From an uncultured Actinomycetota bacterium (GTDB taxonomy: Bacteria; Actinomycetota; Actinomycetes; Propionibacteriales; Nocardioidaceae), in the NCBI GenBank assembly GCA_963835385.1, contig CAWIFK010000002.1, positions 255,572 to 319,571 of the forward strand: a DNA stretch of 64,000 nt, in the 5' to 3' direction. Below are positions 1,063 to 13,163 of this stretch, in pieces. How positions within the stretch are numbered: the stretch's first letter is position 1; every line of letters begins with the position of its first letter. Under the pieces are notes generated by a model. That model was not told where the DNA came from, ran no database searches, and saw only the letters and a list, made by a program, of their open reading frames with translations. The position numbers and the translations under genes were made by a program.

Positions 1063-2478
1063 ATGACGTTGATCCAGGACCCTCCCGAGACCGCGGGCAC
1101 CGCGGGCACCGCGGGCACCGCGGGCGCGGTTGGCCCCGGTGGCGCTGCGAGTACGGCGAGCCCCGATGGCGGGACTGGGACGGCTGGGACCGCGGGCACG
1201 ACCGCCACGGCCGGCGGGAGTGCGCCGTCGCGGCCGGCGGTGTTGCGGCTGTGTGACTCGTTGGACCGGGCGCTGGACGCGGTGGCAGCGTCCCCGGCGT
1301 GGGCGCTGTCGGCGGCGGAGCAGGCCGAGGCGTTGGTGGCGTTGCGGCGGCAGCGGGCGCGGTTGAAGGCGCTGGAGCTGCAGGTGCTGGTGGCGGCCGA
1401 CCGCAATGGGGTCGGCTCGGAGTCGGGGGCGACGTCGACGCCGGCGTGGCTGGCCGACCAGACCAAGTCGGGGCGGGTGGGGTGTTTCCGGGATCTGCGG
1501 CTGGCCCGGGCGCTGGATGAGGAGTACGAGGCCACGGGGCGGGCGCTGGCGGCGGGGGTGATCGATGCGGAGAAGGCGGCGGTGATCGTGGCGGCGGTCA
1601 CCGCGTTGACCGCCGAGCACGACGACCTGCCCTCCGACATCCGGGGACGGGCCGAGGCGCACCTGCTGGACCTGGCGACCCGGTTCGACGCGGTCCGGTT
1701 GCGGCAGCTGGGCAAGCGGCTGTTGAAGGTGGTCTGCCCGGAGGCGGCCGATGCCGCGGAGGGCGCGAAGCTGGAGGCCGAGGAGAAGCGGGCCCGCCGG
1801 CTGGCGTACCTGTCGCTCCGCGACAACGGGGACGGCACCAGCCAGGGCCGGTTCCGGCTGCCCACGCTGCACGCGCACCTGTTGAAGAAGGCGCTGGAGG
1901 CGTTGACCTCGCCGCGGGTGATCGGCGAGGGCCGGATCGACCCGGAGACCGGCAAGAAGCTGGACCACTCCACGTTGCTGGGACACGGGTTCATGGACCT
2001 GTTGGAGAACCGTCTCGATCTGGCCGCGATGCCGGCCGGCCACGACTCGCCGTTCACGTTGACGATCCACGTCGACCTGCACGCCCTGCAGAGCGGGATC
2101 GGGGTCGCCACGGTGGAGACCGGGCACCGGATCTCCGCCGGCGAGGCACGGCGGCTGGCGTGCAAGGCCGGGATCATCCCGATGGTCCTCGACGGGGCGT
2201 CGGTGCCGCTCGACCTAGGCCGGGAGCGCAGGTTGTTCTCCAAGCAGCAGAAGCTCGCACTCGATCACCTCTACGGCGGGTGTGCCGCGGTCACCTGTGA
2301 CCGGCCGCCGTCGTGGGTGGAGTACCACCACCTCGACCCGTGGCACCGCGGCGGACGCACCGACCTGCACAACGGGATCCCGCTGTGCCCGCCGCACCAC
2401 CACATGGCCGACCACCCCGACACCTTCGACATGACCCGCTTGCCCACCGGCGGCGTCCGCTTCACCAGACGGACGTAG
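1063..2478 (+). CDS. DUF222 (13E12/REP13E12 repeat family) protein with C-terminal HNH endonuclease motif
   Basis: DUF222-type N-terminus (LARALDEEYEATGRALAAGVID...AEAHLLDLATRFD). C-terminal 'GCAAVTCDRPPSWVEYHHLDPWHRGGRTDLHNGIPLCPPHH'. Confidence 0.9.
   Translation: MTLIQDPPETAGTAGTAGTAGAVGPGGAASTASPDGGTGTAGTAGTTATAGGSAPSRPAVLRLCDSLDRALDAVAASPAWALSAAEQAEALVALRRQRARLKALELQVLVAADRNGVGSESGATSTPAWLADQTKSGRVGCFRDLRLARALDEEYEATGRALAAGVIDAEKAAVIVAAVTALTAEHDDLPSDIRGRAEAHLLDLATRFDAVRLRQLGKRLLKVVCPEAADAAEGAKLEAEEKRARRLAYLSLRDNGDGTSQGRFRLPTLHAHLLKKALEALTSPRVIGEGRIDPETGKKLDHSTLLGHGFMDLLENRLDLAAMPAGHDSPFTLTIHVDLHALQSGIGVATVETGHRISAGEARRLACKAGIIPMVLDGASVPLDLGRERRLFSKQQKLALDHLYGGCAAVTCDRPPSWVEYHHLDPWHRGGRTDLHNGIPLCPPHHHMADHPDTFDMTRLPTGGVRFTRRT
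1090..1125 (+). repeat. ACCGCGGGC x4, in-frame (Thr-Ala-Gly)4
   Basis: Four perfect 9-bp copies read directly; degenerate copies near 1177-1200. Confidence 0.95.
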
Positions 2479-9427: not shown

Positions 9428-11227
9428 CTACTTCACGCCGGAGAGGCGTCGCCACAGCCACCCGGACGCGACGACCCGGCCCTCGATGACGTAGGTGGCC
9501 GTCGACTCGTCACTCAGTACGGCGTCGAGCGTGCGTCGCGCGAGGGCCGTGCCGGCGACGAGCAGCTCGTCGCCGGGGCGCAGCACGAGGTCGTCGTCCG
9601 GCGTGACCACACTCTCGCCCTCGCGGAGCAGCGTCAGTGGCAGCGCTCTCTGCGGCAGCTCGCGGTCGTTGGGGCTGCGCAGAAGGTCTCCGAGCCGGAG
9701 CCCGCCGCCACTGAGCCAGGCGCTCACCGCGGGGGCGTCGTCCTCGGTCAGCCGGACCAGCCACATGTAGGGGGTGCCTGTTCCGCACCGCTCGACCAGC
9801 CGCGCCACCACCTTCGAGGACCAGTCGTCGCTCTGCCGGGGGACCTGAGGCAGGAACTTCATGAGCGCCGGGTTCGCGAGCCGCGCCAGCACCTCGTGCA
9901 CGATGACGTCGGCCGGCTGCATGCCGAAGTCCAGCGGGACGGCCTCGAACAGTGAGGAGTTCCCCGCGCGGTTCTGCAGCGCGACGATGTAGACGTCCGG
10001 GTTCGACCGGTGCGCCGCCTCGATGAGCCACAGGTTGGTCGTGTCGCTCTCGGTGGCCGCGACGAACACCGCCGTGTCAGGGGCGTCGGCCACTGCGATG
10101 CCGGCGGCCTTCAGGGCACTCGTCTGGTCCTCCACGTCGCGACGCTCGTCGACCACGTCCACCTCGATGTCCTCGGCACGCAGGTCGTCGGCGAGCTCAC
10201 TGCCGAGACGGCCGGTGCCGTAGACCACCCACCGTCCCCGCGGCAGCGGGTCCCGACGAGGGGGCAGGAGCGTGCCCGGGGCGCTGGTCAGCCACGTCAT
10301 CAGCTGGAAGGCGGCCGGTGACCGGTAGAGGATGCGCAGATGGTTGCCGAAGCGGTCGAAGGGGTTGATCACCTGGGGCTTGCCGAAGGTCCGCATCCGC
10401 TCCGCCACGTCGCGCGAGTGTGCCCGGGCGATCACCGGCAGGTCGGGTCTCATCAGGGCGGTGGTCATGGCGACGTCGAGGTTGGTCTGCTCGTCGCCGG
10501 TCAGGGCGACCACGCCTTCGCAGTGCGGATGCCCCACGCCGGCCATCATCAGCCGGTTGGTGTCCCTGGCGTCACCCAGCATGGCGGGCGTGTCGGCGTG
10601 GTACGGCTCGAGGTCCACCCCGGCGATGCGGGTGTCGTCGTGCTCCACGATCACGAACCGGTGGGCCATGTCGTCTAGCGACCGAGCCAGCCGCTTGGTG
10701 GCCTGCCCGTAACCGACGAGCACCAGGAAGGGCTCCCGCATGCGCTGGACCTGGCGGGCGAAGCGGCGCCTGGCGAGGGCGCGCCGGAACGCCCGGTCCT
10801 GCATCAGCGTGAGCAGGGACCCGATCGCGTACGCCCAGCCGATGACCGACAAGAAGATCGCGAACGTGACCCACATCCGCTGCTGGGGGGTGAACGCGTG
10901 CGGGAGCTCGCCGAATCCGATGGTGGTCGCCGTGTAGCTCATGAAGTACAGCGACTCGAACAGCGACATCCGGTCGGGCCGTCCCTGCTCGTCCTGACCG
11001 GGAATGATCGACAGACCGAGCACGCTCACCGCGAACACGACGATGAGCACGATCAACGGTGCGCGCATCCTTCGCAGGACCAGCAGGATGCCGACGGAGG
11101 GTTCTCGGCCGGACGGCCTCCCCAGCGGCGAGGTCCGGTGGTCCTCGGCCGGGTCCTCGTCGTCGCGGGGGTCCTCGCGCTGGTCGTCGAAGAGCCGCAG
11201 GACCAGCGCCAGCAGCGGGTTGGTCAT
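9428..11227 (-). CDS. Potassium channel family protein with TrkA-N/RCK (NAD-binding) domains
   Basis: Pore and filter 'SLYFMSYTATTIGFGELP', Rossmann 'LVGYGQAT', 'GDARD', second RCK 'VYGTGRLG', RCK-C 'LRPGDELLVAG'. Confidence 0.9.
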   Translation of the reverse strand: MTNPLLALVLRLFDDQREDPRDDEDPAEDHRTSPLGRPSGREPSVGILLVLRRMRAPLIVLIVVFAVSVLGLSIIPGQDEQGRPDRMSLFESLYFMSYTATTIGFGELPHAFTPQQRMWVTFAIFLSVIGWAYAIGSLLTLMQDRAFRRALARRRFARQVQRMREPFLVLVGYGQATKRLARSLDDMAHRFVIVEHDDTRIAGVDLEPYHADTPAMLGDARDTNRLMMAGVGHPHCEGVVALTGDEQTNLDVAMTTALMRPDLPVIARAHSRDVAERMRTFGKPQVINPFDRFGNHLRILYRSPAAFQLMTWLTSAPGTLLPPRRDPLPRGRWVVYGTGRLGSELADDLRAEDIEVDVVDERRDVEDQTSALKAAGIAVADAPDTAVFVAATESDTTNLWLIEAAHRSNPDVYIVALQNRAGNSSLFEAVPLDFGMQPADVIVHEVLARLANPALMKFLPQVPRQSDDWSSKVVARLVERCGTGTPYMWLVRLTEDDAPAVSAWLSGGGLRLGDLLRSPNDRELPQRALPLTLLREGESVVTPDDDLVLRPGDELLVAGTALARRTLDAVLSDESTATYVIEGRVVASGWLWRRLSGVK

Positions 11228-11236
11228 CGACGGCTC

Positions 11237-11623
11237 CTATCGGCGGCGGAAGGAGACCGTCTCGACGACGAGGATGACGACGGACACGATGTTCGCCAGC
11301 AGCGCCCCCGCGGAGAGGGACACGACGCTGGCGGTCATGGAGGCAGACATCGGCCCGTCCAGGACGTTGGTCGCGTAGGCCCAGACCACGGCGGCGGTGA
11401 TGAGCTGCAGGCTCGCGACGAGGCTCGTCGCGAGCTGGACGGCGCCGATCTGCGTCCGGTCGCCGAACTTCAGCACGGTCGCGATGAGGTTGACCACGAC
11501 CGCGGCGAACAGCTCGTAGACGTTGTGCAGAGAGGGGTCGCCGATGTCACCGATGACGAACCCGAAGTTCAACGTCGCGGCGAGCAGCACGAAGAAGCCG
11601 AAGACCACCTTCTCCAGGTTCAC
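11237..11623 (-). CDS. Small membrane protein, DUF6394-like
   Basis: MNLEKVVFGFFVLLAATLNFGF...LIATVLKFGDRTQIGA..LATSLVASLQL. GTG start with GGGAGA RBS. Stop lies 9 nt before the channel start. Confidence 0.75.
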   Translation of the reverse strand: MNLEKVVFGFFVLLAATLNFGFVIGDIGDPSLHNVYELFAAVVVNLIATVLKFGDRTQIGAVQLATSLVASLQLITAAVVWAYATNVLDGPMSASMTASVVSLSAGALLANIVSVVILVVETVSFRRR

Positions 11624-11735
11624 GCGTTCTCCCCTCGTCTGCCTACGCATCGTACGGGGCCTTTGACCGTTCTCCCGGCAGGGCATAGGCCGTGGCGTCC
11701 CGGCTGCCCGTGGTTGTGTGCGGCAGACTGGCCAC

Positions 11736-12707
11736 ATGCCCGACGACTTCGTGGTCGCCCGGAACCCCGAGGGTGACTCGTCGCTGCCGTACCTCCTGCG
11801 GATCCCGCTCGGCCGCGACGGCGTCATCGTGAAGGCGAAGGAGACCTGGCCGCGGACCAGCAAGGTCTACTGCCACCGGGTCGACGACTGGCCGGCCGAC
11901 GCCGAGATCGTCGAGCGGGTGCCGACCCGCTCGTGCGTGCGTCGGGGCGCGGCGATCGACCTGGTCCTGGACCGGGGGCGCGAGAACCGCTCGCAGCTGG
12001 TGTTCACCCGGATCCGCGGCGGCCGGCAGGCGATCTTCTGGCAGACTGCCCGCACCAGCAAGCAGGCCAGGCCCGCGGTCACCGTGCCATCCGCCCGTGC
12101 GGCCGGGCTGCGCGATCTCGAGATCGTCGTGGACAGCCACGAGCGGTACCCCTTCGCGTTCAAGGACCAGCAGGTGGTGACGCGTCGGGCCGGGCTGCCC
12201 GCCGGCGACTACGGGGTCATGGTCGACGGGTCGCTGCTGGCGAGCGTGGAGCGGAAGAGCCTCGGCGACCTGGTGTCGTCATTGACCACCGGCAAGCTGA
12301 AGTACCAGCTCGCCGACCTGGCCGCCGTACCGCGCGCGGCGCTGGTCGTGGAGGATCGCTACTCCCAGGTCTTCAGATCCGAGCACGTGCGACCGGCGGT
12401 GATCGCCGACGGCCTCGCGGAGTGCCAGGTGAACTGGCCGACGGTGCCGATCCTGTTCCTGGAGACCCGGTCGCTGGCCCAGGAGTGGACCTACCGGTTC
12501 CTGGCCGCGGCGCGGGCTGCCGCCGAGCACGAGTACGGCGGCGAGGTGGCCCTCCGGGCTCTTGCGCCGGCACCCGCACTGGCGCCGCCGGAGCCGACGC
12601 CGGCCGAGGTGCGGTCGTGGGCGATCGCGCAGGGACTCGAGGTGTCCGACCGTGGCCGGGTGAGGAAGGAGATCGTCGAGGCCTACCGGGCGGCGCGGCT
12701 GGGCTGA
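11736..12707 (+). CDS. ERCC4/XPF-type nuclease domain protein with C-terminal Lsr2 DNA-binding domain
   Basis: ERCC4 motifs VVDSHE, AGDY, VERKSLGDL, LVVED. C-terminus 'AEVRSWAIAQGLEVSDRGRVRKEIVEAY' matches the Lsr2 C-domain. Leaderless -10 CAGACT 6 nt before ATG. Confidence 0.85.
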   Translation: MPDDFVVARNPEGDSSLPYLLRIPLGRDGVIVKAKETWPRTSKVYCHRVDDWPADAEIVERVPTRSCVRRGAAIDLVLDRGRENRSQLVFTRIRGGRQAIFWQTARTSKQARPAVTVPSARAAGLRDLEIVVDSHERYPFAFKDQQVVTRRAGLPAGDYGVMVDGSLLASVERKSLGDLVSSLTTGKLKYQLADLAAVPRAALVVEDRYSQVFRSEHVRPAVIADGLAECQVNWPTVPILFLETRSLAQEWTYRFLAAARAAAEHEYGGEVALRALAPAPALAPPEPTPAEVRSWAIAQGLEVSDRGRVRKEIVEAYRAARLG

Positions 12708-12782
12708 ACCGCGGGGTCACCGTGGCGTACCCGGGGTCTGGCGAGGCTTCCCCCGGCAGAACCGACGGCGCAGACTCGTTGC

Positions 12783-13163
12783 ATGCCGGATGCTCGTGTG
12801 CTCACCGTTCGCCAGCCGTGGGCGTGGGCGATCGTGCAGGGCGCCAAGGACGTCGAGAACCGGTCGTGGCGGACGTCGTACCGGGGGGCTCTCCTGATCC
12901 ACGCGGGCCAGACCGTCGTGCGCCACGCCTACGCGGTGGTGGAACGCCTGACCGAGCAGTCACCGCCGGCGCCCGCGGACATCACCAGGGGAGCGATCAT
13001 CGGGGTCGTGGAGCTGGTCGACTGCGTGACCGATGCGGACTCCCCGTGGGCCGACGAGGGGCAGTGGCACTGGCTGCTGCGCGACGCACGGCCGATCCAG
13101 CCGGCCTTCCCGTGCCCCGGCAGGCTCAACCTGTGGCCACCGCCGCCGGACCTGCGCTGGTGA
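12783..13163 (+). CDS. ASCH domain protein
   Basis: 'LTVRQPWAWAIVQGAKDVENRSWRTSYRGALLIHAG...GAIIGVVELVDCV'. Leaderless -10 CAGACT at 12771-12776. Confidence 0.9.
   Translation: MPDARVLTVRQPWAWAIVQGAKDVENRSWRTSYRGALLIHAGQTVVRHAYAVVERLTEQSPPAPADITRGAIIGVVELVDCVTDADSPWADEGQWHWLLRDARPIQPAFPCPGRLNLWPPPPDLRW

Follow-up and report, generated by a model that had tools for sequence, protein, structure and literature searches.

Why would an actinobacterium carry a gene for a nuclease of the XPF/Hef type that ends in the DNA-binding domain of the silencing protein Lsr2? The question is raised by a gene on contig CAWIFK010000002.1 (assembly GCA_963835385.1) of an uncultured member of the Nocardioidaceae, of which we analyzed a stretch of 64,000 nucleotides, here called the window and numbered from its first letter. 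The open reading frame (ORF) lies on the forward strand at 11736-12707, is intact from its ATG at 11736 to its TGA stop codon at 12705-12707, and has a product of 323 aa. Our results confirm that this is a real, intact XPF/Hef-type nuclease gene with an Lsr2-type DNA-binding tail. We read the product as an accessory, stand-alone XPF/Hef (ERCC4)-like structure-specific endonuclease whose Lsr2 tail stands in place of the tandem helix-hairpin-helix domain, (HhH)2, and we give this reading a probability of roughly 0.55.

A preliminary description of the locus had divided the protein into an unassigned N-terminal domain of about 110 aa, an ERCC4 domain and an Lsr2 domain, and this three-part architecture is upheld by Pfam, by PDB sequence search and by a fold model. 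The nuclease domain (residues 126-262, at 12111..12521 on the forward strand) matches Pfam ERCC4 (PF02732) over residues 132-255 with an E-value of 4.2e-17 and 62.8 bits, well above the cut-off of 24. The C-terminal domain (residues 287-323, at 12594..12704, forward strand) matches Lsr2_DNA-bd (PF23359) over residues 287-320 (E 5.9e-14, 51.6 bits, cut-off 26.9), and NCBIfam gives a partial match only, to the Hef nuclease region. The top matches in the PDB sequence search were the Hef nuclease domain of Pyrococcus furiosus (1j22, E 1.2e-4) and the Lsr2 structures 2kng, 6qkp and 6qkq, the latter matching residues 289-322 only.

The catalytic signature GDXn-ERKX3D and the upstream acidic pair VDxxE are both present in the window protein. 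They take the form of VDSHE (132-136), GDY (157-159) and ERKSLGD (172-178), and the view that these motifs are intact holds in the alignment to Hef 1j22, where VVDSHE/GDY/ERKSLGD stand opposite VVDSRE/GDY/ERKSAND. In 49 sequences from two subfamilies, D133, E136, G157-D158-Y159 and E172-R173-K174 are invariant, and D178 is not. In the tail, SDRGRV (304-309) lies opposite STRGRI of Mycobacterium tuberculosis Lsr2 (2kng), with R306-G307-R308 on the RGR motif, so the RGR 'grip' that had been recognized in the tail is indeed retained; SDRGR is nearly invariant within the Lsr2-tailed subfamily in the homologue alignment. Profile and PDB sequence searches gave no further Lsr2 profile match in the protein that would represent the N-terminal dimerisation/oligomerisation domain of Lsr2. 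Nor was there any helix-hairpin-helix profile match, the C-terminus being occupied by Lsr2_DNA-bd.

The fold of the protein agrees with these assignments. A first AlphaFold model made from close homologues gave the N-terminal domain a predicted local distance difference test score (pLDDT) of 72, and a second model, made from the alignment of 49 sequences from two subfamilies, reached 89 over residues 1-270. In the second model, residues 5-104 form nine beta strands, residues 112-123 are disordered (pLDDT <50) and residues 128-267 form a Hef-like alpha/beta nuclease. A Foldseek search against the PDB placed this nuclease on Hef 1j22 with a template modelling (TM) score of 0.82, a root-mean-square deviation (rmsd) of 2.5 and an E-value of 4.6e-8, and also found the XPF of Aeropyrum pernix (2bgw), human XPF and Mus81. 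Two linkers separate the three domains on the forward strand: a flexible one at residues 113-125 (12072..12110), and one at residues 263-286 (12522..12593) that comprises the end of a long helix and an Ala/Pro-rich part. The latter varies in length and sequence, with a 27-residue insert in one homologue, and has the highest rate of nonsynonymous substitution (dN).

The N-terminal beta-barrel (residues 1-112, at 11736..12071 on the forward strand; nine strands at pLDDT 84-93 in the second model) is uncatalogued. Neither a single-sequence search nor one with a 28-sequence profile gave any Pfam, NCBIfam or PDB sequence match for residues 1 to about 112, which by alignment and by the ratio of nonsynonymous to synonymous substitution rates (dN/dS) are better conserved than any other part of the protein. 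Superfamily 2 (SF2) helicase motifs were absent from residues 1-112 in the profile search and in the model, which has the all-beta barrel there instead. The invariant residues of this region are L17, P24, P39, C46, W52, P53, G71, L76, L78, R80, R85, F101, W102, P113 and R121. The top Foldseek match of the barrel outside the ERCC4 proteins is the archaeal LigD 3'-phosphoesterase 3p4h, and it is a weak one (probability 0.95, E 0.03, TM 0.46, rmsd 5.2). The barrel shares no sequence or profile similarity with this enzyme or with the phosphoesterase (PE) domain of bacterial LigD. Since neither the 49-sequence alignment nor the alignment of the N-terminal domain contains a conserved His or Asp, a Mn2+-dependent phosphoesterase site in the barrel appears very unlikely. 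We therefore rejected an active LigD-type phosphoesterase: the barrel resembles that fold weakly, lacks the catalytic residues and gives no profile match. As modelled, the barrel is an uncatalogued domain, possibly of a PE-like fold, that would lack the phosphoesterase active site.

The Hef nuclease domain and the short archaeal XPF (P. furiosus 1J22-1J25; A. pernix 2BGW/2BHN) share with the window protein the ERCC4 fold, the VDxxE/GDY/ERKxxxD motifs and a layout of nuclease, flexible linker and small duplex-binding module. In contrast to them, the window protein has an Lsr2-type binder for (HhH)2, no SF2 helicase, no recognisable PCNA-binding tail and an N-terminal barrel of about 112 residues, and it comes from a bacterial host, where it is encoded by an accessory, mobile and partnerless single gene. 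Dimerisation, substrates, the roles of the accessory modules and the cellular pathway are what we infer. By analogy, the enzyme would most likely be a homodimer, like its archaeal relatives, that cuts one strand at junctions of single-stranded and duplex DNA, and its substrates may be 3' flaps, splayed arms, forks and D-loops. The small barrel, rich in Arg and aromatic residues, probably takes the place of the helicase or helicase-like domain of Hef/XPF and would hold the single-stranded arm or DNA end; its chemistry would suit nucleic-acid binding. The Lsr2-type minor-groove binder would anchor the enzyme on the adjoining duplex, perhaps with a preference for AT-richer stretches. In the structure of A. 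pernix XPF with DNA, (HhH)2 likewise binds the duplex via the minor groove and backbone. The protein might thus retain the tripartite plan of Hef and XPF, namely a junction or single-strand reader, a nuclease and a duplex binder, with both outer modules replaced by non-homologous ones.

The upstream region points to a simple mode of expression. A -10-like hexamer, CAGACT, lies at 11724..11729 on the forward strand, 6 nt before the ATG, and in 60 of 81 loci of the family a hexamer of the form NANNNT precedes the start codon by 5-8 nt, compared to 6.7 expected from shuffles. This enrichment points to a transcript that is leaderless and to a minimal promoter that travels with the ORF. Expression from such a leaderless -10 promoter would be constitutive. 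The gene itself is dispensable and relocates, its sites being chromosomal or on plasmids and transposons.

The protein belongs to a large family whose constant part is not the tail. In a homologue search in which 8,000 candidate clusters at 90% identity were examined, more than 6,700 clusters passed the threshold of E ≤ 1e-3. The best 120 of these all combine ERCC4 with Lsr2, and wherever a source is named, it is Nocardioides or Nocardioidaceae. With one genome scanned per species, at least 559 loci were confirmed, including some in the class Acidimicrobiia at 64-67% identity, and clustering at 50% gave 322 representatives with E below 1e-30. When distant representatives are aligned, the conserved unit is the barrel together with ERCC4. 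The C-terminus may be of the Lsr2 type, absent (in proteins of 270-283 aa) or, by Pfam, a winged helix of the MarR/DeoR type. The sources of the winged-helix subfamily are Chloroflexota (Limnocylindria), Trueperaceae (Deinococcota) and one metagenome-assembled genome (MAG) of Firmicutes. Relatives with a winged helix-turn-helix (wHTH) tail or with no tail, from Chloroflexota, Deinococcota and some Actinomycetota, share the barrel and ERCC4 core, invariant residues included, at 35-47% identity, and differ in that the C-terminal module is MarR/DeoR-like or missing. Because the core is constant while the tail is Lsr2-type, wHTH or absent, the Lsr2 tail is, as judged from these alignments, the form that an exchangeable DNA-binding module takes in the actinobacteria, and not a defining part. 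Lsr2-like tails also occur elsewhere, in several phage protein families and in the type II methyltransferase model PDLC03328 of PADLOC (MTase_II, positions 533-570), so the nuclease is not the only DNA enzyme to which an Lsr2 DNA-binding domain is fused. Such tails on other enzymes and phage proteins agree with a DNA anchor that is generic and typical of the lineage.

Purifying selection acts on all three domains. In pairwise comparisons with six close relatives, dN/dS is 0.14-0.23 for the whole protein; the barrel (0.11-0.21) and the nuclease (0.11-0.19) are the most constrained, and the value for the tail, 0.14-0.43, also reflects purifying selection. The GC content at third codon positions (GC3) of the gene is 0.94 in a region of about 70-72% GC and resembles that of the adjoining genes, so composition gives no mark of recent import. 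In the protein tree, the homologues mostly follow host orders, which points to much vertical inheritance, yet the Acidimicrobiales fall within the Actinomycetes.

The gene is nonetheless far from universal among close relatives. It is present as a single copy in the genome of the window, and among 24 further congeneric genomes a match was found in 7 and none in 17, many of the latter being >98% complete. Three of the seven carry a full-length copy and four only broken copies or fragments: one genome has two truncated copies, of which one contains an internal TAG, and in the other three the gene is split by a frameshift, broken into three pieces or reduced to a 74-residue remnant. Within loci L005-L013, these are five broken copies in four congeneric genomes (G002:C12, G002:C19, G014:C16, G024:C11 and G001:C1), and one further broken copy lies in a genome from the same order but a different family (G029:C8). 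Compared to the closest relatives (86-79% identity), DNA similarity starts 12-36 bp before the ATG and stops at the stop codon, and the flanking genes are all different, i.e., the copies occupy different sites. The gene is thus functional but dispensable: selection maintains it where it is present, and it is often lost and can move.

Several points weigh against the endonuclease reading as set out above. The dimer and its substrates are drawn purely by analogy, and full-text literature searches yielded no biochemistry of any family member. The likeness of the barrel to the LigD PE domain is weak and lacks sequence support, which makes its DNA-binding role a guess. Additionally, one would not usually find such patchiness, frequent decay and mobile carriage in an ordinary repair factor; they suggest a role related to conflict or to mobile elements.

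Of the roles that such a lifestyle might reflect, one is that of a cargo or helper of mobile elements, in which the enzyme would trim flaps or resolve branched intermediates during transposition, conjugation or multimer resolution, or would be a semi-selfish gene together with a DUF222-HNH gene. We regard this as possible but improbable. Homologues with 52-60% identity were found on 23 plasmids in PLSDB, from Mycobacterium, Rhodococcus, Streptomyces, Pseudonocardia and Mycolicibacterium. On those of the plasmids whose neighbourhoods were inspected, the homologue lies beside a serine recombinase and ParA (a 21-kb M. chimaera plasmid), IS21 istB and integrases, a Tn7-like tnsA-tnsB-tnsC-tniQ set, a Tn3-type transposase and recombinase, or HigBA and HipA toxin-antitoxin modules and IS elements. 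The confinement of congener similarity to the ORF and 12-36 bp also speaks for this role. At most chromosomal loci, however, no transposase, integrase or repeat adjoins the gene, and neither terminal repeats nor target duplications were seen. The tree also counts against it, since it runs largely by host order and much of the inheritance is thus vertical. Six of seven plasmid copies form one clade, and the copy on Rhodococcus pDK3 stands elsewhere on a long branch. Phages did not turn out to be carriers either, as no relative was found in 50,697 INPHARED genomes or in IMG/VR. A phage origin was accordingly rejected, the BFVD fold matches covering the ERCC4 domain only.

The link to the DUF222-HNH ('13E12-type') gene is the most specific part of the mobile-element case. 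Of 80 chromosomal loci, 11 have such a gene no more than 8 kb away, and in about 8 (~10%) the distance is about 1 kb or less, an adjacency that may be commoner than chance would give. Loci with this gene near the nuclease are L024, L059, L061, L070, L075, L037, L099, L025 and L048. One MAG (CAVSYA01) has two identical nuclease copies on two contigs (L059 and L061), each behind the same DUF222 fragment and a TY-Chap gene; the pair seems to stem from a recent segmental duplication, or else from duplication during assembly or binning. The window has its own gene with DUF222 and HNH at 1063-2478 (+), 9 kb upstream of the nuclease gene.

About as likely as the mobile-element role is that of a single-gene defence or exclusion nuclease, whose Lsr2 tail would find AT-rich foreign DNA in a host of 70% GC and whose ERCC4 domain would cut the intermediates of that DNA. 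The preliminary description put this idea forward. In a more specific and still more doubtful form, it would amount to one-gene 'xenogeneic cleavage', i.e., a mobile XPF-type nuclease that dwells on AT-rich DNA, cuts its intermediates as the destructive counterpart of Lsr2 silencing, and spreads through the Actinomycetota on plasmids and transposons. The conserved RGR motif speaks for it, as do the accessory nature of the gene, its different sites in close relatives, its presence on 23 plasmids beside Tn7-like, Tn3-like and IS21 elements and toxin-antitoxin modules, and its absence from both phage collections; a constitutive leaderless promoter would also suit a sentinel. Against this, the tail is replaced by a wHTH or missing on the same core in relatives, one Nocardioidaceae subclade keeps the gene in stable synteny between housekeeping genes (a TrmA-like methyltransferase and aconitase), and a nuclease with a low-specificity AT preference would be unguarded, with no evident discrimination between self and non-self. 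ERCC4 enzymes are specific for structure, not for sequence. As the tail also lies outside the conserved core, we find no support for the claim that it aims the nuclease at foreign DNA.

The neighbourhoods did not bear out an association with defence islands either. Neither the nuclease nor the barrel matches a model in PADLOC-DB 2.0, where the only match was between the Lsr2 tail and the tail of the methyltransferase model mentioned above. Among the 128 immediate neighbours in 80 loci, PADLOC found JetA in one and AbiEi in one, and its Csa3 matches, and perhaps its mad2 matches, look like cross-matches of helix-turn-helix (HTH) domains. The same 128 neighbours fall into 135 Pfam families, of which the commonest, DUF222, has five members, and de novo clustering of 921 neighbouring ORFs gave no family in more than 12 of the 80 loci. 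With no recurrent neighbour and only scattered defence matches, the gene works without a dedicated partner and lies outside defence islands. Its accessory, patchy and plasmid- or transposon-borne lifestyle nevertheless leaves room for a defence or exclusion role.

A core role in DNA-damage repair, in which the enzyme would be the bacterial counterpart of XPF in nucleotide-excision or crosslink repair and a member of the damage response, is unlikely. Of the repair alternative that the preliminary description had raised, the homology to XPF/Hef stands, and dispensability and the lack of an SOS or PafBC promoter motif tell against it, which leaves it weakly supported. The PafBC/RecA-NDp motif occurs in 0 of 81 upstream regions, and LexA-like matches are found in six of the 81 and are weak, with three mismatches, so there is no sign of damage induction and membership in a damage regulon was rejected. 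A core repair enzyme would also hardly be missing from 17 of 24 congeners and be present only in broken form in four of the other seven. Some neighbours do have a repair flavour. A pair of TY-Chap (tandem-YbjN) and UvrD-like helicase genes lies 1-6 kb from the nuclease gene in 7 of 80 loci (L023, L028, L048, L051, L059, L061 and L102), and two wHTH-tailed relatives in Chloroflexota/Limnocylindria MAGs (L111 and L112) lie 2-4 kb from genes for an AlkZ-like glycosylase and an O6-alkylguanine-DNA methyltransferase (MGMT). This AlkZ/MGMT linkage was rejected, since it is limited to the two Chloroflexota relatives and absent near the 80 actinobacterial loci and in the window, where no repair gene is a conserved neighbour. 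At L111 and L112, toxin-antitoxin modules of the PIN or HEPN/nucleotidyltransferase type directly adjoin the nuclease gene.

That the protein is a non-catalytic nucleoid-associated or regulatory paralogue of Lsr2, as the NCBI labels 'histone-like nucleoid-structuring protein Lsr2' and 'Lsr2 family protein' for homologues would have it, is highly improbable, because only the 37-residue tail is Lsr2-like, the oligomerisation domain is absent and the nuclease residues are invariant and under purifying selection. Lsr2 itself (M. tuberculosis Rv3597c; 2KNG, 6QKP) has in common with the window protein the two-helix C-terminal DNA-binding domain with its RGR 'grip'. The window protein is three times longer, has a nuclease that looks active from its residues, and lacks the N-terminal oligomerisation domain for bridging silencing. 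Homologues appear in databases as 'ERCC4 domain-containing protein' or under the nucleoid-structuring name, and the many entries that call ERCC4-Lsr2 proteins 'Lsr2' are misnamed.

A survey of the PD-(D/E)XK superfamily in 2012 listed ERCC4/XPF/Mus81 as 'Archaea & Eukaryota, no HGT observed', i.e., without observed horizontal gene transfer (PMC3424549). Full-text literature searches found no description of an ERCC4-Lsr2 fusion or of a bacterial XPF family, in agreement with the earlier statement that no experimental account of the fusion was known. What emerges is a bacterial ERCC4 family with thousands of members that follows the plan of XPF with both accessory modules swapped for unrelated ones. 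If the endonuclease reading holds in biochemistry, the family would offer a compact model, of the single-chain type, of how junction reader, nuclease and duplex anchor combine in XPF-like enzymes. In that case, the recombination toolkit of the actinobacteria, mycobacterial and Rhodococcus plasmids included, would also gain a structure-specific nuclease.

In the window, two unrelated blocks of genes flank the nuclease gene. Upstream and divergent lie a TrkA-type K+ channel with TrkA-N and TrkA-C domains (599 aa) and then a DUF6394 membrane protein, both at 9428-11863 on the reverse strand. The longest ORF for the latter (11237-11863) reaches into the start of the nuclease gene, and since its Pfam match starts only at residue 113, its true start is probably further in. 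Downstream follow an ASCH-domain gene and then a convergent ABC-2 transporter operon. None of these neighbours (TrkA channel, DUF6394, ASCH, ABC-2) adjoins the homologues in 7 congeneric loci or in 80 loci of other species. The ASCH gene (12783-13163, forward strand, 126 aa) matches its Pfam family with an E-value of 2.3e-6 and the phage family phrog_3193 with 4.5e-47, and it is preceded by the same CAGACT-N6-ATG arrangement as the nuclease gene (CAGACT at 12771-12776). Despite this common arrangement, we rejected it as a partner and consider it a local accident, given its absence near the 80 related and 7 congeneric loci.

The stable synteny of the Nocardioidaceae subclade mentioned above (L040, L046, L050, L057, L064-L066, L069 and L072) runs from an amino-acid permease through the TrmA-like methyltransferase, an HTH_17 gene, a gene for an unknown 246-aa protein and ERCC4-Lsr2 to aconitase. 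The nuclease gene starts there two bases after the stop codon of the 246-aa gene (TAGCCATG), which suggests that HTH_17, the 246-aa gene and the nuclease gene form a three-gene operon specific to that subclade.

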